DNA of 64,000 nucleotides from a virus (taxonomy: Duplodnaviria > Caudoviricetes), in the IMG/VR virus record IMGVR_UViG_2061766007_000342, positions 96,001 to 160,000 of that record. The stretch is one strand, 5' to 3'. A model generated the notes under the pieces. It was not told the origin of the DNA, did not search any database, and saw only the letters and a program-made list of their open reading frames with translations. The position numbers and the translations under genes were made by a program. Position 1 is the first letter of the stretch; every line of letters starts with the position of its first letter. Below are positions 4,022-32,758 of the stretch, piece by piece.

Positions 4022-5830
4022 ATGGCTGATAATGAGCTGATGAAAAATGGCTTAGTTAATAAAGCGATTGAAAAAGCTGGTATTGATCCGCCTGATGCGG
4101 AAGAAATTGCGAAAGCTGGTGTTCTTGGTAAAGGTACATTTGACAGGACGATCAACAAATTCATCAAAGGTGCTAAAGGAAATACTTCCGTCATTGGTAT
4201 GGCAACGAAGAATACGTTTGAATTCCCCGTATTCGTATCTTCATCCGTACCACTTGATTATGCAGAATCAACATGTGAAATTCTCGAACAGGTTTATGCA
4301 TCATATATTCAGATGGCAATCTCCATGAATCCGATTGTTGATGCGCGTGATCTGAAGAAGGGTGGTTTCTTAAGTAACTTTAAAACGAACACCACCAAGT
4401 ATCTTGAGTATGCAGAGGAACCATATGAGTTTGATTCGTGTCATAATGAGATTCGTGTCGACGATACCATTTGTGAATTTGATATGATGTCAATTGAAGA
4501 TGACGATGCAAGAGTGATTAATGAATTCTGCTCTTATGAACCGTTGTCTGAATTCGATCATTTCTTCAACGAAGCTGCATCAAATGGAAATGTTCATAAT
4601 AATATTGTTGGTAAAGACGGATTGTCTGAAAAGCAATATATGGATGTATTTGCTCCAGGTGGCTCCCAAAATCAACAACAATTTGCAAGAGCACATGAAG
4701 GCTGGCTGAGATATCAGCGTCTTCTTAATGAAGTAAAACAAGATGCAGCTGATTCGAAACTTACTGAAAAGCAAAGAGATACGTTTCAAAAGCAAATTGA
4801 TAACTTCGAAAAGAGTATTGAAAAAGCCAATGAAGAGATCAAGAAACTTAAGGATGAAAATGTAATCGCTCCGAATCCGTTGGATCTGGATACTGATAAA
4901 CTCACTGTACATCAGAAGAAAACATTCGCTGATGCAGAGAAGGCACTGCTTGACTTGGAAAAAGCTGAAGCTGATATTGGCAAGGATAAGCTTGGTAAAT
5001 CATATGGCGACGAAGTTGCTGCACGTCGTCTCAAGGCAAGTGCGGAAGCGAATCTGAAACAGACTGAACTCAACCTTGCAGCAGAGCGTCTTCAGCGTGA
5101 ACGTAATAAAGATGCACGTGAAAGAACATTGATCAAGGGTCCAGAAATCATGGATGAGTCTAAGATCAACAAGCTCAATTCCATGAAGCCATTGATGATG
5201 CGTGTTCAGCTTCGTGTTCAATCGAGAACAGGTCAAATTACAGAGTATCCTGTAGAGTTGATTTGTGGTGTTAAAGTACATTGTCGTGTCGTTGATGCTA
5301 ATGTACTTCCGGAAGTTGCAAAGTTCCCCATTAAGGATATGAATCCATTGACCAGAAAGGTTAAGTGGAGAGCCGGTGAGTTAAAGTTCTTCAAGGATCT
5401 GTTATTCAATATCAAGGAGAAGAAACAATCCGCAATTGATGCACGTGATCCATCCAAGAAATGGTATCGTCGTTTGTATGCATTAGCTCATCAGAAGGGT
5501 GATTCTTTTGTAAGTAAAAATATCTCCGGTAATCCACGTACTGGATTAATTCCAAATGCATCCATTATCATGACACAGAATGATGTTGAAATGATTAAAT
5601 CTGAAACGGAGATTGATTTGTTGAAGGGTTCAACCGGTTGCAAACTGTGTCGTGAAATGTTCTTGATGGCACTTGTTGTTATTGATCAAGATCGTGAGTC
5701 TGTTAAGTTATTAATTCCGGATCTCGGTAATGATTATGATGTTAAGTCAATTGCATCCATCAACAAGAAGATTGCTGAGTTGAGTACCGCTGGTGCAAAG
5801 ACTCGTGATATCTTTAAGCTGTTGGGTTAA
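4022..5830 (+). CDS. putative virion (internal head) protein with central coiled coil
   Basis: 602 aa, coiled-coil middle, FFNEA candidate maturation site; AAGGAG SD. Confidence 0.5.
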   Translation: MADNELMKNGLVNKAIEKAGIDPPDAEEIAKAGVLGKGTFDRTINKFIKGAKGNTSVIGMATKNTFEFPVFVSSSVPLDYAESTCEILEQVYASYIQMAISMNPIVDARDLKKGGFLSNFKTNTTKYLEYAEEPYEFDSCHNEIRVDDTICEFDMMSIEDDDARVINEFCSYEPLSEFDHFFNEAASNGNVHNNIVGKDGLSEKQYMDVFAPGGSQNQQQFARAHEGWLRYQRLLNEVKQDAADSKLTEKQRDTFQKQIDNFEKSIEKANEEIKKLKDENVIAPNPLDLDTDKLTVHQKKTFADAEKALLDLEKAEADIGKDKLGKSYGDEVAARRLKASAEANLKQTELNLAAERLQRERNKDARERTLIKGPEIMDESKINKLNSMKPLMMRVQLRVQSRTGQITEYPVELICGVKVHCRVVDANVLPEVAKFPIKDMNPLTRKVKWRAGELKFFKDLLFNIKEKKQSAIDARDPSKKWYRRLYALAHQKGDSFVSKNISGNPRTGLIPNASIIMTQNDVEMIKSETEIDLLKGSTGCKLCREMFLMALVVIDQDRESVKLLIPDLGNDYDVKSIASINKKIAELSTAGAKTRDIFKLLG

Positions 5831-25875: not shown

Positions 25876-26016
25876 TTATTCATATACTTCACCGACAATT
25901 TCGAAATACTCTTCCGGTGTAATCCATTTGCCAACAACGTTGTATACCTTTTGCTTCGACCACAACCCGGAGTCATAGTAATTCTTTACCTTATAAAAAT
26001 TCTTAGAATGTTCCAT
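25876..26016 (-). CDS. XkdX-family small protein (46 aa, not in the ORF track)
   Basis: Hand translation MEHSKNFYKVKNYYDSGLWSKQKVYNVVGKWITPEEYFEIVGEVYE with GGAGG SD; YY..GLW...V...V.KWIT.EEY.EI.G is the XkdX pattern. Confidence 0.85.
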   Translation of the reverse strand: MEHSKNFYKVKNYYDSGLWSKQKVYNVVGKWITPEEYFEIVGEVYE

Positions 26017-26040: not shown

Positions 26041-26313
26041 TTATACATCAAGATCAACATCCGTCATTGCTGCAATGTAATCAATATTTGCAGTATTGAT
26101 TTCTTCACAATAGATTGCATAATCAGCATGAGACAGCTTGGCTTCTTCGTACACATATACGGTACGTGTAACCGGTTCACCTTCACCAATATCATCAGTG
26201 CGTTCAACCTCACGTATATTACGACGAATATATACTGTGGTCGGAGAAGAATCCATGTCTAATTCTTCTGGATAAGAGTCAGACTCAGAATTATAAAATG
26301 TCAAAGTAATCAT
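26041..26313 (-). CDS. acidic tail-fibre-associated protein of the type usually found before XkdX
   Basis: 90 aa ending ANIDYIAAMTDVDL; ATGA overlap with the RT stop. Confidence 0.65.
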   Translation of the reverse strand: MITLTFYNSESDSYPEELDMDSSPTTVYIRRNIREVERTDDIGEGEPVTRTVYVYEEAKLSHADYAIYCEEINTANIDYIAAMTDVDLDV

Positions 26314-27434
26314 ACGACAGACACTTCCTTTCGTGGTTGTTGTAATAATGAATTTAAATACTTAGAATGGCGTGACACTATGTCACGCATTGCTTTCAAA
26401 TGTATTTTATCTTTAATGTATTTAACAAAATATCGTGTACAATCAATGTGCGACAATGAACCAAATCGTGATAACATTTGTGTGGATACATACCAACCGG
26501 GATGTTTATTACACAAATAATATTTACGATGGATATGATTCGCCTTACGACGAATCTTATACAACGTTCGTTTTCGTAATGTAGTTCGATTTCGATAAAA
26601 TTTAAATCCCATGTAATCGATACATCGACCATGTCGATTACCATCATCAAATAAAAACAATTGATGATTTCTTTTTACCAATAATCCATAGTCATATAAT
26701 AATACATCGTGTGTTTTATAAATGATATTACGTAAATGATTTTTATTGAAATCAATTAATACGATATCATCCATATATCGCATCACAAATGGAACATGAA
26801 AGAATTGTTTTAACATGTAATCAAAATATGTCAAATACCAATTGGCGAACCATTGTGATGAATAAAATCCAAGTGGAATTCCAATTTCTTCATTATCATA
26901 AAATATAATCCTATGAATAATTTTTAAAAATCGATAGTCGTGTATTTTATTTGATAACATTGTCATCAGTATACGTCGATCAATATGTTCAAAGAATTTA
27001 CGAATATCGAACTTATACACATACATTCGTTTATGTTTATTTTTACAAATGAAATGTTTTATGATTTTACGTCCATAATTTGGACCTTTGTTGGGAATCG
27101 ATGCACATGAATGTGGATAATAATGTTTTGTGAATATTGGTTGTAAAAGCTTTACAATCATATGTTGAATAATTAAATCTGGCATAAATGGTGGGCGTAA
27201 AACAATTCGTTCTTTATTGCATGTATGTTCATGAATTTTTACCGGTTTGATATATTGTGGCGAAAATGATTCATTCTCAATAATCCCATATAAGTAATCC
27301 ACGTAATAGTCGATATGCTTCAACACATGTCTTACATCAGTACGACGGGTTTTATGTTTTGCAGCATCGATAATGTTTTGTTTGATAAATTCTTTGTCAA
27401 GCATCTTTTCAAACAAATGATTGTACGACTTCAT
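26310..27434 (-). CDS. DGR reverse transcriptase
   Basis: KERIV..P...DLIIQH, KFDIRKFF, GIPLGFYSSQWFAN (the SQ signature of DGR RTs), RYMDD and IDYMGF; adjacent TR/VR pair. Confidence 0.96.
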   Translation of the reverse strand: MKSYNHLFEKMLDKEFIKQNIIDAAKHKTRRTDVRHVLKHIDYYVDYLYGIIENESFSPQYIKPVKIHEHTCNKERIVLRPPFMPDLIIQHMIVKLLQPIFTKHYYPHSCASIPNKGPNYGRKIIKHFICKNKHKRMYVYKFDIRKFFEHIDRRILMTMLSNKIHDYRFLKIIHRIIFYDNEEIGIPLGFYSSQWFANWYLTYFDYMLKQFFHVPFVMRYMDDIVLIDFNKNHLRNIIYKTHDVLLYDYGLLVKRNHQLFLFDDGNRHGRCIDYMGFKFYRNRTTLRKRTLYKIRRKANHIHRKYYLCNKHPGWYVSTQMLSRFGSLSHIDCTRYFVKYIKDKIHLKAMRDIVSRHSKYLNSLLQQPRKEVSVV

Positions 27435-28581
27435 TATGTTGATAATCCTTTCTGTTGAATAGTATCTTCATTAATTGTTCGATTTCATTATTTTTGACAT
27501 ACTCTGATAAATTAAAATGTTTATCACGAATTTGATCCAATATAGATATAACTGAAACTGAGTCAACGATACAGTGTTCTATTTCCGATCCATATTGAAT
27601 CAAATGTTTTCGAAATGAATTGTGTATCAATTGTAAATGATTTCGATAATATGTTGATGTATTTGGTAACGCAATAACATTATAGTTCAATAAGTAATAT
27701 CGTGCAATGTTACGTGTTAATTCATCAATTGCATTGCGTAACTGTTGAATCTTTAAATAAACACATTTGCATTGACGTGTATATTTATCGGATAAACGTT
27801 TAATTGATGCAATTAAAGATTTGATATGTTTTGACACACCATACTTCAATCCATCAGAATCTTTACAAACAATAAGCTTTTTCAAAGATGTAATATCATC
27901 AATTCCAATTACATGTTTCGGGTATTCACCCGGTTGATACATTTGATGAAATACGATGTTCTTGAAGAATATACTATCATATTCAGTCGTTGTATCATCT
28001 TCATATTGATACAATAACGTTGCATAATATTTAGAATCGAATGATTTAATAATTTTGACATTCACATATTTGAATGTAACACCATATTCAAGTTTGTGTT
28101 TGTTCATTGTTTGTAATATGGAATTTACCGGTAATTTCAATGCTTCAACGTTACCAAGATGAGGTAATGTTACTGTATAATGTCCATTGTCGTTCTTCTC
28201 GGTATTGAATTTAACAATGAATTTGTTATCACGATCAACATATGTGTCTGGTATACCAGCATTACATGAATGATATTTCGGGAACATTTCAAATATTAAT
28301 TGATTACGACGATGAATCATATTATGAAATGCTTCATCAATTTTATGTTTTGATTCACATAATAGATATTGTGGAATCTTCTTCATCCACGGATGTTGTT
28401 CAATCACGTCACGAATTGTGACGGATGATAATGAACGTCCATCTGTTCGAATATATTCATCACGATGTAAATGATTTATTGTATTATAAACCTTTCTACG
28501 TGCATCCATTACCAAATGAATATATCGACGTTGATGAATATTTGGAAAGATTCGCACTCGATATGTCTTATATCGAGTCAT
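27409..28581 (-). CDS. TnpB (IS200/IS605 OrfB)-family protein, predicted nuclease-dead
   Basis: YKTYRVRIFPN..Q...ARRKVYN, HPWMKKIP, FPKY, VTLPHLG.V, KYYATL and VIGID (RuvC-I) present; expected RuvC-II Glu position reads VIALPN; no zinc finger or RuvC-III; ATG 28581 after a GGTGGTG SD; overlaps the RT start by 26 nt. Confidence 0.75.
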   Translation of the reverse strand: MTRYKTYRVRIFPNIHQRRYIHLVMDARRKVYNTINHLHRDEYIRTDGRSLSSVTIRDVIEQHPWMKKIPQYLLCESKHKIDEAFHNMIHRRNQLIFEMFPKYHSCNAGIPDTYVDRDNKFIVKFNTEKNDNGHYTVTLPHLGNVEALKLPVNSILQTMNKHKLEYGVTFKYVNVKIIKSFDSKYYATLLYQYEDDTTTEYDSIFFKNIVFHQMYQPGEYPKHVIGIDDITSLKKLIVCKDSDGLKYGVSKHIKSLIASIKRLSDKYTRQCKCVYLKIQQLRNAIDELTRNIARYYLLNYNVIALPNTSTYYRNHLQLIHNSFRKHLIQYGSEIEHCIVDSVSVISILDQIRDKHFNLSEYVKNNEIEQLMKILFNRKDYQHNEVVQSFV

Positions 28582-28689
28582 GGTTGTAATCACCACCAAT
28601 TATTTATTTACGACAAAATTTAAGCGTCATATATCGTTTTATTCCGATTATACTTATCAACATATTATTCTTACGAATAATACATCTCA

Positions 28690-29020
28690 TGCAACACCGT
28701 TTCGACATGCTACTAAGGTGCTTTTGTCAGCATCATTTTTTCCAAGGGGAATGGATTTTAGAACGCAATAAAATACGAAAAACCGCACATGGATAATCAA
28801 TAAGCCTTCCATGATGCATGAGATTTAAGGAGAGGCACCAATGTTCCAGTTGGAGTTCGACGCCGTATTGTTCAGATTGACGTACCAAGCGCCACAGTTG
28901 GACCCATTGTTGGAATTGCCTCCACAAATAGCGGGCGTTCTAAAACCCAAGTTATGATTTCCATCGTTTAAGTTTACAGCAAACTTGTTTTGCTTATACC
29001 CCACCAGTTCCTGCGGGGTT
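28690..29020 (-). ncRNA. DGR template RNA (5' leader + TR + spacer); boundaries approximate
   Basis: TR is bracketed by complementary 14-mers (28935-28948 and 28753-28766); downstream CCCCTTGGAAAAAAT...GCACCTTAGTAG...CGAAACGGTGT resembles DGR spacer elements. Confidence 0.7.
28829..28933 (-). repeat. DGR template repeat (TR)
   Basis: 105 bp, ungapped against VR; ten AAC/AAT codons in the target frame; all 18 mismatches are at TR adenines. Confidence 0.97.
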
Positions 29021-29098
29021 TTATGTGAATCAAAACAATATTATTTATCGTTATAACACGAGAGTTCACGAAATATACAACTCACAACTCAAAAAACG

Positions 29099-29130
29099 CC
29101 AGAGGGAGGAGATGTATCTCCTCCCTCTGG
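29099..29130 (-). other. perfect hairpin/cruciform downstream of VR (homing element and/or terminator)
   Basis: ccagagggaggagat-gt-atctcctccctctgg, 15-bp arms, followed on the minus strand by cgtttttt. Confidence 0.7.
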
Positions 29131-29206: not shown

Positions 29207-31276
29207 TTATTCAACGGGTGCAATTAAGTATGGAGAGGCACCAACGGCCCAGTAGGAGCTCGACGCCGCAGCGTGCAGAGAGACGCACCAAGCGCCACAG
29301 TAGGACCCATAGCCGGAACTGCCTCCACAAACAGCGAGGTTTGTTTGTGAGTTATTAGTATAGTAGTAATCACAAGTATATTTTGATGCAGAACCGGTTG
29401 ATCCAGTTGCAGTAGGAATACGACCCCAAGTTGCACTATTTGCTATTTGCCAGCCAGTGGCTGGCAAGGTAATGCCAGTAACAGTACCTTCAGCAGACGT
29501 CGTATATGGAGCAGTCCACTTAACTCTTACCGAACCACTAACATTCCAAAGACCAAGGCATCTGTCCCAACGTTTACCCCACCAATCTTCGATATAGAAT
29601 ACTTTAACAGGTTGATTTGACGTCGTAAATCCAGCAAATTGTCCAGCAGTATCAAGATACCCCGTATCATGCCATCCATATTGATTACCAGATGGAACAT
29701 CACTTGCAGCTGAATTATAACCATTTTCATTGCCACGACCAAATGCAGTTTGTGTATCATCATGACAACTAATCATCAGAAGCATAATGTTCAGCCATAC
29801 TCTATGTGCGAAATCGCAGATACTCCATCTTGGCCCATTCTGTTGTGCAGCATATACCTCACCTGTTGTACCAACCGCACCACCTGCACATTGTGTGTTA
29901 TTCTGAATGGATAATGTTGATGTCGATGGTTTACCAGATGCACCGCTTAAACTTCTCAATTTGCCATTATAGTAGCTTCCTTTATACATCGGATAATACA
30001 ATTTAGATGCCATCGTTCCATCTGGTCGATAATATGGATATGCATGGAAATCCTCATCAACCTGATAATCTGCAATCTGATAATATTCATAATCATTATC
30101 TTCCCATGCTTTGATCCAAATCATACAATCAAAGACAGACATTGCATTACCGTCATAATTCACATTGGCAACATCAGATAGGGTTACACCATCAGATTTA
30201 TAGGCATGATTTGTTTTTGATAACTGATAATCAATTGCACCTCCGGATGTTACCATTGCTGGGTAGTTATTCTTAACGAAGAATAATCCACCCCACGATC
30301 CAAGATTCACTTTACCAGTATTATCCAATCTAGCGGGTGTAAAACCCACTGCCATATCGGTATATGTTACGCGTGTTGCTGGATCGGAATTATTCTTATC
30401 TACTTTACATCCATAAATAACACCTTGTGGTGTTGCTGGTGTATTATCCAGATCATTATAATCACCGGTAAATGCAACCTTCTTGATGTTCCCATAATGC
30501 TCATTCAAATACCGCATCTGAGCAGCTAATGAATCTGATATGGGTTTATCTGTCAGATCATTATATGATCCAGAGAAAGCAGTCTTTTCCAATTCATACA
30601 TATATTCAGTCAATGTATGATTATCAAATGCCGGTTTTGGTGATGCATCATTCGTTGCAGCATAATATGCTTGCGGTGCAACTACTGGTGAAAAGACAAC
30701 ACCACTCATTGTGGTATTTGCTTTAATCATGATACAGAAGCATTGTGTATCATATGCAGAGTTGATCGTCTGGTTTACAATACCAGAATTACAGGTTGTA
30801 GAATATGCAGTAGGAATGGTTGCTTGATCATCCGCAAGATAACCAAGGTATGAATAAAACGTAGAAGAAGAACCAGTTTGAGAACCATGTCCAAAAAATA
30901 CATCCACATCAGATGGAGTCGGGAATTGGAAATACACGATAACATCATTTGTGGAAGAACCACTGATTGTCAATGATCCAGTTCCTTCAATATCATATTC
31001 TGCTGTAATACCAGTATCCAGATAACCGGTAGATGCATTTACAACATTGATTGTTGCAATTGGTACTGCACAGTTGACATTATTACCAACAATGGTATTG
31101 ATGTCATTCATGACTTGATAAACCGCATTAGATGTGATTGGATTATTACTATCAGCGGTTGGTGTGGTATCCATATTAACACCACTAACCAGTTTATCCT
31201 GTTTATACTGATTGAGAAGTGTATGATAGTCAGCAAGTCTACGCAGACTAATAAACTTTTCTTCAGGCGTAAGCAT
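29207..31276 (-). CDS. DGR target protein: tail fibre/adhesin with a C-terminal C-type-lectin-like variable domain
   Basis: 689 aa; VR encodes AVCGGSSGYGSYCGAWCVSLHAAASSSYWAVGASP at the C-terminus; IEDWWG..W motif; YNDL..KP fibre repeats. Confidence 0.9.
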   Translation of the reverse strand: MLTPEEKFISLRRLADYHTLLNQYKQDKLVSGVNMDTTPTADSNNPITSNAVYQVMNDINTIVGNNVNCAVPIATINVVNASTGYLDTGITAEYDIEGTGSLTISGSSTNDVIVYFQFPTPSDVDVFFGHGSQTGSSSTFYSYLGYLADDQATIPTAYSTTCNSGIVNQTINSAYDTQCFCIMIKANTTMSGVVFSPVVAPQAYYAATNDASPKPAFDNHTLTEYMYELEKTAFSGSYNDLTDKPISDSLAAQMRYLNEHYGNIKKVAFTGDYNDLDNTPATPQGVIYGCKVDKNNSDPATRVTYTDMAVGFTPARLDNTGKVNLGSWGGLFFVKNNYPAMVTSGGAIDYQLSKTNHAYKSDGVTLSDVANVNYDGNAMSVFDCMIWIKAWEDNDYEYYQIADYQVDEDFHAYPYYRPDGTMASKLYYPMYKGSYYNGKLRSLSGASGKPSTSTLSIQNNTQCAGGAVGTTGEVYAAQQNGPRWSICDFAHRVWLNIMLLMISCHDDTQTAFGRGNENGYNSAASDVPSGNQYGWHDTGYLDTAGQFAGFTTSNQPVKVFYIEDWWGKRWDRCLGLWNVSGSVRVKWTAPYTTSAEGTVTGITLPATGWQIANSATWGRIPTATGSTGSASKYTCDYYYTNNSQTNLAVCGGSSGYGSYCGAWCVSLHAAASSSYWAVGASPYLIAPVE
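29232..29336 (-). repeat. DGR variable repeat (VR)
   Basis: Differs from TR only at adenine positions (18 of 25 TR adenines changed). Confidence 0.97.
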
Positions 31277-31300: not shown

Positions 31301-32758
31301 TTATGACACAACGGTATTGGATGTATAATACGTTGTATTGATTGTGGGTGTACCAGTAAATGTACCTCCAGTGCCGGTGAACATATTACTCAAATTACCT
31401 GAACTACCAGTACCAGTTCCACTTGTAGGAATACGATATGGTGTTTGATATGCACCCGTCTGTGTTGTAGAAAGTTTAATATTTGTACAACCGGTGAACA
31501 TATATTGGTAGCAATTACTTACCAACGTTCTTGCAGGTAATGCGGGTATTGTAGTAAGAGATATACAATTCTTGAACATAGTGTTGTAGCAATTATTTGC
31601 CAATGTTGTTGCAGGTAATGCAGGTGCTGTAGTAATAGATATGCAATTATTGAACATATTAGCATAGCAACTACTTGCCAATGTTGTTGCAGGTAATACA
31701 GGTGCTGTAGTAAGAGCTGTACAATCACTGAACATACCACTGTAGCAACCAAGTGCCAACGTTGTCGCAGGTAATTTAGGAGCAACAGTAAGAGATGTAC
31801 AACCATAGAACATACCGCTGTAGCAATAATTTGTCAATGTTGTTGCAGGTAATGCAGGTGCAACAGTAAGAGATGTACAACCATAGAACATACTAGAACA
31901 ACAATTACTTGCCAATGTCGTTGCAGATAATGCAGGTACATTAGTAAGGGATGTACAACCTTGGAACATACTAGAATAGCAATTACTTTCCAATGTTGTT
32001 GCAGGTAATTCAGGAGCAACAGTAAGGGATGTACAACCTTGGAACATACTAGAACAGCAACCAACTGCCAATGTTGTTGCTGGTAATGCGGGTATTGTAG
32101 TGAGAGCTGTACAACCATAGAACATGCTAGTGTAGCAACCAATTGGCAATGTTGTTGCTGGTAATTCAGGAGCAACAGTAAGAGATGTACAACCATTGAA
32201 CATATTAGCATAGCAATTAATTGCTAATGTTGTTGCAGGTAATTTAGGTGCATTCGTAAGAGATGTACAACCAATGAACATATAATAGTAGCAATAATTA
32301 TCCATTGTTGTATTTTCAGGATCTTCATAATCCAATAATGTTCTAATATCTCCATTACATGCAATTGTACCAGTTGTTGCAAATACAAAAGATGAATAAA
32401 CGGAAGATGATGATGGTATTGCTGAAATGTGAGTATTGTTTTTACCTCTTAAATACAACACATTTCCTGTACCGGAAGAAATTGCGGTACTGGATGAACC
32501 ATCCCATTCCGTCCAAGTTGTTTTATTCGTGGAATATTCAATTGTACCATTCCATTTCTTACCAGTAAGGGTTTTCAATGTAAATGATTCCGTTCCAATA
32601 AATGTAAGATATGGACCTTCGAACAAACCGTATATGTCACCATATGACGCTTCATCGATTTTATGAACAGCTTCAGCATCTTTAATTGCATATAACACAG
32701 GACTATTACCAGTGGAATCAGATACCTGTGAAATATACAATTTCTCATCATTTGGCAT
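31301..32758 (-). CDS. leucine-rich-repeat (BspA-like) surface/virion protein
   Basis: About ten tandem 26-aa repeats APxLPATTLAxxCYxxMFxGCTSLT; AAAGGAGG SD. Confidence 0.85.
   Translation of the reverse strand: MPNDEKLYISQVSDSTGNSPVLYAIKDAEAVHKIDEASYGDIYGLFEGPYLTFIGTESFTLKTLTGKKWNGTIEYSTNKTTWTEWDGSSSTAISSGTGNVLYLRGKNNTHISAIPSSSSVYSSFVFATTGTIACNGDIRTLLDYEDPENTTMDNYCYYYMFIGCTSLTNAPKLPATTLAINCYANMFNGCTSLTVAPELPATTLPIGCYTSMFYGCTALTTIPALPATTLAVGCCSSMFQGCTSLTVAPELPATTLESNCYSSMFQGCTSLTNVPALSATTLASNCCSSMFYGCTSLTVAPALPATTLTNYCYSGMFYGCTSLTVAPKLPATTLALGCYSGMFSDCTALTTAPVLPATTLASSCYANMFNNCISITTAPALPATTLANNCYNTMFKNCISLTTIPALPARTLVSNCYQYMFTGCTNIKLSTTQTGAYQTPYRIPTSGTGTGSSGNLSNMFTGTGGTFTGTPTINTTYYTSNTVVS
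31490..32300 (-). repeat. 78-bp coding tandem repeat array
   Basis: Recurring aatgttgttgcaggtaat...agatgtacaacc...gaacat units with a 78-nt period. Confidence 0.85.

Follow-up and report, generated by a model that had tools for sequence, protein, structure and literature searches.

A predicted nuclease-dead TnpB derivative maintained between the template repeat and the reverse transcriptase of an Avd-less phage diversity-generating retroelement

We analysed a 64,000-nucleotide stretch of tailed-phage DNA (the window; positions 96,001 to 160,000 of IMG/VR record IMGVR_UViG_2061766007_000342, Caudoviricetes). It belongs to a 258-kb record, 96% complete, that carries a diversity-generating retroelement (DGR). 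Between the template repeat (TR) and the reverse transcriptase (RT) of this DGR lies a gene for a 390-aa protein, called dTnpB below, which is predicted from its residues to be a nuclease-dead TnpB derivative. The gene is found at the same place in related phages, evolves under purifying selection, and is accompanied, upstream of the TR, by a short module resembling a TnpB guide RNA (omegaRNA). The arrangement suggests that an RNA-guided protein now controls or escorts the template RNA of the cassette. The coordinates agree with the gene order given by an earlier, sequence-only reading of this DNA: on the minus strand, a tail protein with the variable repeat (VR) is followed by a hairpin, the TR, a spacer, the 390-aa open reading frame (ORF) and the RT.

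29207..31276, minus strand: DGR target gene, 689-aa tail protein (phrog_5302, E 1.4e-60), with the VR at its 3′ end
29229..29336, minus strand: VR, paired with the TR, with adenine-biased differences
29099..29130, minus strand: GC-rich post-VR hairpin (14-bp stem) and T run, a DGR target hairpin or terminator
28826..28933, minus strand: TR, paired with the VR
27409..28581, minus strand: dTnpB, predicted nuclease-dead TnpB derivative, 390 aa, pI 9.3 (domain, fold and alignment)
26310..27434, minus strand: DGR RT, 374 aa, YMDD intact (RVT_1; phrog_1423, E 3e-74; alignment)

The 390-aa ORF overlaps the RT by 26 nt, and the two share the AT-rich, His/Ile/Lys-rich composition noticed before, both being 29.7% GC. 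The RT has intact YMDD and SQ motifs and was placed by a tree within DGR RTs. Eighteen of the 19 mismatches between TR and VR fall at TR adenines. A near-identical strain (locus L034) differs from the window at a single base of the TR and at 13 sites of the VR, 12 of which are TR adenines; the DGR was therefore recently active with the 390-aa ORF in place. Post-VR hairpins similar to that of the window are also present in relatives. In all carriers checked, the GC content of the RT and dTnpB genes was 28-35%, below that of their own loci (34-40%).

The proposed TnpB identity was borne out by domain and structure searches. The protein matches HTH_OrfB_IS605 above cut-off, and the TnpB model NF040570 with an E value of 5e-13, which is below the cut-off of that model. 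The best PDB matches of an AlphaFold model (pLDDT 79, pTM 0.48) were TnpB-omegaRNA complexes (E 3e-14), with Cas12f next. TM-scores of this model against the PDB were low (0.35), probably due to mispositioned lobes; the Atlas model alignment covered residues 1-389 with a TM of 0.69. Alignment to intact TnpBs showed, as first read, that the RuvC-I aspartate is retained, that the RuvC-II glutamate is replaced by proline, and that the zinc finger and the RuvC-III aspartate are gone. All family members lack the last three features, and 4 of 6 retain the RuvC-I aspartate. The proteins are basic (pI 9.3-9.7), and their best conserved part is the WED/REC half (27-38% pairwise identity, versus about 20% for the C-terminus). 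The residues with which ISDra2 TnpB reads its target-adjacent motif (TAM), namely K76, F77, Q80 and T123, are altered in dTnpB.

No sign of a mobile element was found around the gene. It is present in a single copy, no TnpA scored above cut-off across the 96%-complete genome, in keeping with the absence of tnpA first reported, and no full omegaRNA or right end was found 3′ of it, where the RT sits. The phage also encodes an unrelated TnpB with an intact triad (G000 C1:59269-60420, minus strand), behind which the model detected no omegaRNA; with 18% identity and a position outside the dTnpB clade, it was ruled out as a parent. A TnpB fragment lies elsewhere in the phage (G000 C1:35917-36078, plus strand).

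Word-index searches for homologs returned only the protein itself or one relative, and the family was recovered through the neighbours of RTs and by exhaustive phmmer searches. A homolog lies directly upstream of each of the closest RTs (P0009 and P0011-P0014, with RTs 50-65% identical), and the phmmer matches P0128 and P0131 each precede an RT. Two other candidates were rejected, P0134 as an ordinary intact TnpB outside any DGR and P0133 as a repeat artefact. The gene thus occupies the same position in 7 of the 7 lineages checked (RTs 46-68% identical), two of which have only the dTnpB gene end on their contig; this count excludes P0010, an RT inside the clade on a 1.4-kb contig. The seven carrier RTs form one clade (SH support 99) relative to 31 non-redundant outgroup DGRs. 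No dTnpB was found in any of these 31, where the TR mostly ends some 110-170 nt ahead of the RT and the interval is empty (the computed gaps are too large by about 60 nt). An insert is likewise missing from the sister clade, and no clean deletion restoring a TR-RT cassette was found within the clade. At one carrier locus (L035:1665-2789) the RT is in two pieces of 198 and 168 aa next to an intact dTnpB, which represents inactivation or an assembly error.

Linkage to DGR RTs, congruent trees and a dN/dS below one had been named as the observations to look for, and all were made. The same division into two subclades is seen for dTnpB, for the RT and for the upstream RNA. In three unsaturated comparisons, dN/dS of dTnpB was 0.42, 0.37 and 0.36 (p 0.05, 0.12 and 1e-4), versus 0.17-0.27 for the RT. 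Full frames have stayed open at 23-35% identity despite saturated synonymous sites, and in a neutral simulation the open frame survived in 0 of 1000 runs at 0.35 changes per site. We conclude that dTnpB is not a stray insertion and is under purifying selection; domestication of some kind is highly probable. The carriers share flanking genes with the window genome, which indicates one acquisition in related phages rather than repeated recruitment. At locus L022, identity to the window is 87% for the target, 60% for the RT and 31% for dTnpB, a hint that cassette and target are exchanged separately, with dTnpB staying with the RT.

The RNA around the TR was divided into the following elements, the first two of which are candidates.

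28979..29018, minus strand: putative minimal omegaRNA scaffold, with a stem (28999-29018) and a pseudoknot between loop 29007-29010 and strand 28981-28984
28963..28978, minus strand: putative 16-nt guide, at the start of a 24-34-nt AT-rich linker and, like the ISDra2 guide, 2 nt beyond the pseudoknot strand
28935..28948, minus strand: 5′ arm of a long-range, cPRT-Stop-like duplex closing the TR, pairing with 28753-28766 in the fold
28680..28766, minus strand: 3′ arm of this duplex and DGR spacer RNA (Rfam RT-18-like, E 0.03)

Downstream of the TR, the RNA has the usual features of a DGR. TR-closing duplexes of the cPRT-Stop kind have been described (10.1101/2023.10.23.563531), and the RT-18 match, below the gathering score here, is above it in three relatives. 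The sequence-only reading had taken the DGR RNA to be the nearest structured RNA; directly 5′ of it, however, stands the separate omegaRNA-like module at 28979-29018. A hairpin of this type occurs 84-98 nt before the TR in all 6 lineages with sequence there, and resembles the 5′ stem of Firmicutes IS605 omegaRNAs. A stem profile built from 28 intact IS605 omegaRNAs only ranked it first in 5 of the 6 loci. Its 4-nt loop pairs with a 4-mer located 27-37 nt downstream in every lineage (24 of 24 cells paired), with compensatory changes in two of the four pairs in an alignment that was not fitted to the structure. The pseudoknot register is that of intact IS605 omegaRNAs, including the one of ISDra2, which ends 2 nt before its guide (PMC10097598). 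Stem and pseudoknot together were present in 6 of 6 lineages versus one outgroup family (5 of 74 loci), for a genome background of 0.017 per 200 nt.

Several points weigh against an omegaRNA origin. The stem-plus-pseudoknot pattern was defined post hoc, from these same six sequences. Two outgroup post-VR hairpins also score high with the stem profile, so that the stem alone is no proof. The module measures 40-50 nt, half the normal length, most middle stems are missing, and it escapes a full-length omega covariance model (best E 7). An Rfam scan of the region gave no omega family match, and exact-pattern scans for the mini-scaffold gave no further sites. All things considered, we regard the omega origin of the module as probable. 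A likely origin of the arrangement would be an IS605 element present in two copies, one on each side of the TR, of which one kept only the RNA and the other only the gene. A 6-9-bp hairpin abuts the 5′ side of the stem in four relatives (L036:~50-68, L039:~265-287, L028:~4443-4468, L027:~4468-4489) and is weak in the window. A 17-nt complementarity between 29021-29037 and the ORF was absent in relatives and was taken as chance, and an apparent tnpB remnant upstream of the scaffold in L027 was rejected, being a weak match on the wrong strand that vanishes with a profile.

If the module still works as a scaffold, its guide would start where the ISDra2 guide does (PMC10097598), and we placed the 16-nt guide by this analogy. 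Putative guides differ wholly between lineages. The only perfect site for the window guide in the genome is the guide's own DNA, and no other convincing target was found in the genome or in the other loci compared; unrelated guides lacking another good phage target are as expected of a self-target. The last five bases of the scaffold are TTTAT in 3 of the 6 lineages (L022, L036 and L039), and Firmicutes TnpBs and TldRs use TTTAT and TTTAA as TAMs (10.1101/2023.11.30.569447). Related elements have TTGAA or TTTAA at their left ends, and intact elements avoid a self-site because their right end is no TAM. TldRs repress from a 5′ untranslated region in one strand geometry only, which is that of the self-site here.

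The model that we tentatively favour, at somewhat under an even chance, is a TldR-like, RNA-guided autoregulation of the DGR transcript. A single insertion of an IS605-type element into an Avd-less tail-fibre DGR, in an ancestor shared by these phages, would have been followed by its domestication. The TnpB would have lost its nuclease and kept its RNA- and DNA-binding lobes, while the guide RNA shrank to a stem and pseudoknot core, which would now be the 5′ leader of the DGR transcript. Loaded on this mini-scaffold, the dead TnpB would bind its sole perfect target, which lies in the DNA immediately after the scaffold, and would use the five bases at the scaffold's end as TAM. With its TAM end toward the incoming polymerase, the bound complex may block elongation into TR, dTnpB and RT. 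The outcome would be a negative-feedback limit on mutagenesis. Regulation of the cassette and binding of the DGR RNA, both put forward in the sequence-only reading, are live options, with the mini-omega module as candidate binding site.

The TAM evidence in part speaks against this model. The window pentamer, TTTGC, is atypical, and two more lineages have TTTGT and TCTAT. In the others, TTTAT could have arisen from the usual right end by C-to-T drift, the cassette being AT-rich. The changes at the TAM-reading residues mean that the TAM of dTnpB is not predictable. Because of these residues and the atypical pentamer, autoregulation is put forward as a hypothesis.

A rather unlikely alternative is that dTnpB is an RNA clamp, sitting on the mini-scaffold as a 5′ cap or folding chaperone, the "guide" being an ancestral AT-rich linker that has no DNA target. 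The scaffold runs on into the DGR RNA, keeping a fixed distance of 24-34 nt from the duplex arm, outgroups have a similar AT-rich linker without a scaffold, and unconserved guides and a basic protein would both fit. However, the best conserved half of the protein is WED/REC, which reads DNA and heteroduplex, and outgroup RTs function without such a cap.

Two further alternatives place the dead TnpB on the DNA of the cassette near the VR. A chimeric RNA, part mini-omega guide and part DGR template, might be held by the dead TnpB on the cassette's own DNA beside the VR, gating or positioning mutagenic retrohoming; we consider this unlikely. Distinctly unlikely too is a tether in cis, by which dTnpB at the self-site, its guide still joined to the TR RNA, would keep the complex of RT and template anchored some 250 bp away from the VR. 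This shares the self-site basis of the autoregulation model; a single transcript can contain scaffold, guide and TR, and in all lineages the VR is close to the self-site. But TnpBs and TldRs normally have guides shortened to 9-16 nt, and such trimming would sever the guide from the TR RNA; outgroup DGRs diversify their VRs without dTnpB. Nor is there complementarity to the VR region: the putative guide had no match in the VR vicinity above shuffles, which also leaves the R-loop at the VR imagined at first without support.

The two next explanations are both improbable. The DGR could be only the transcript source of a classical TldR acting in trans, the guide aiming at a host or distant phage promoter. 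Known TldRs, phage-encoded ones included, repress promoters with short seeds, and the guides here are AT-rich like promoters; yet, in contrast to TldR guides, they have no sequence in common from one lineage to the next, and the best trans match in the genome is an 11-nt seed, at about chance level and with a different flank. The gene could otherwise be a slowly decaying insertion sequence (IS) remnant whose frame is kept open only by coupled translation of the RT. In every lineage the RT start either adjoins the ORF or overlaps with it, the ORF changes roughly twice as quickly as the RT (23-35% versus 46-61% identity), and all carriers are related phages, as after one event. Coupling by itself, however, would not be expected to give selection at the amino-acid level (p 1e-4 in the most informative pair), a retained fold and a pseudoknot kept alongside through compensatory changes, and the clean deletion that would restore the ancestral TR-RT cassette was not found in the clade.

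The sequence-only reading had seen no Avd, and a search of the 96%-complete genome agreed: there was no bAvd or four-helix-bundle match and no PF22296 or TIGR02436 match. The closest outgroup DGRs are TR-RT cassettes with neither Avd nor dTnpB, with no room for an Avd gene between TR and RT, so that this RT lineage works without either. Such cassettes correspond to Architecture A of Wu et al. (PMC5758913), who also report an entire lineage without avd. The missing Avd is ordinary, and dTnpB is an addition to the cassette, not an Avd replacement. The suggestion that the protein stands in for Avd, binding the RT as an essential accessory, is very improbable: dTnpB is basic, adjoins the RT and has a congruent tree, but sister and outgroup RTs have neither this gene nor Avd at that place, Avd-independence of the lineage is published, and the fold is unrelated to that of Avd.

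By its parts the cassette is a member of the Avd-less DGRs. With Architecture A1 / Lineage 3 of Wu et al. it shares the target-TR-RT order, the adenine-specific VR, the post-VR hairpin, the RT-18-type spacer RNA and the lack of avd; it differs by a 360-400-aa TnpB-derived gene and the omega-like RNA module. The only known DGR accessory classes are Avd, HRDC, MSL and CH1. With the IS200/IS605 TnpB-omegaRNA system (ISDra2; PMC10097598) it shares the protein fold and the register of stem-loop and pseudoknot, which stops 2 nt short of the guide. Here, in contrast, nuclease residues are lost, RNA and gene are separated and in reversed order, the middle stems of the RNA are missing, and signs of mobility are lacking, with a single copy in the genome and the same site in all carriers.

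By analogy, dTnpB would work most like the TldRs associated with fliC, oppF and csrA (Wiegand et al., 10.1101/2023.11.30.569447), although its membership in TldR is putative. Common to both are the decayed RuvC triad, the lost zinc finger, the absence of tnpA and IS ends, a stable link to a non-transposon gene and, for one TldR clade, a phage location. The differences are that the partner is a DGR; that the RNA lies upstream of the gene instead of downstream, as a 5′ extension of a retroelement RNA; that the scaffold has 40-50 nt versus about 97; and that the guides are unconserved, with no distal promoter target found. Exapted inactive TnpB clades (RpoE, SpoIIE, flagellin, DppD; Altae-Tran et al., PMC10691335) are likewise immobilized, inactivated and linked to a partner gene; an RT or DGR association is not mentioned in the main text of that study. 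A full-text literature search, with most subscription papers outside its coverage, found no description of TnpB or TldR with a DGR. The arrangement thus joins two known systems, a dead TnpB and a DGR, in a way not described in the literature searched.

The surroundings of the cassette contain two further small genes.

26041..26313, minus strand: small acidic 90-aa gene after the RT, with a homolog behind the RT in 182 of 187 loci
25876-26016, minus strand: XkdX-family 46-aa gene following the acidic gene

The acidic gene is present with or without dTnpB and is not specific to the dTnpB system; it could encode a tail-fibre chaperone or a true, perhaps CH1-like, accessory of the Avd-less lineage. 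At the locus of one homolog (L283:4569-4832) the DGR lies between portal and protease genes. In the window, the XkdX neighbour places the DGR inside an operon of tail-fibre/chaperone type. Upstream of the target, 31434-32357 contains 78-nt tandem repeats and encodes a leucine-rich-repeat-like protein whose repeat number is strain-dependent (485 versus 352 aa). Among outgroups, a second VR-like copy was seen at L096:11674-11783 and a second TR-like copy at L075:3469-3732.

This would be a further independent domestication of TnpB, and the first found tied to a retroelement. DGR activity tracks TR and RT transcription (10.1101/2024.11.15.621889). For the questions of how DGRs are switched down and how the cDNA finds the VR, this cassette offers a built-in candidate regulator, with protein, RNA, RT and target all within 3 kb. 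A scaffold of 40-50 nt, if working, would define the minimal RNA for the TnpB fold, which matters for compact RNA-guided binders and for programmable mutagenesis tools based on DGRs. Should the chimeric-RNA reading be true, the DGRs of these phages would form an RNA-guided class, and their TnpB scaffold would rank among the smallest in nature.

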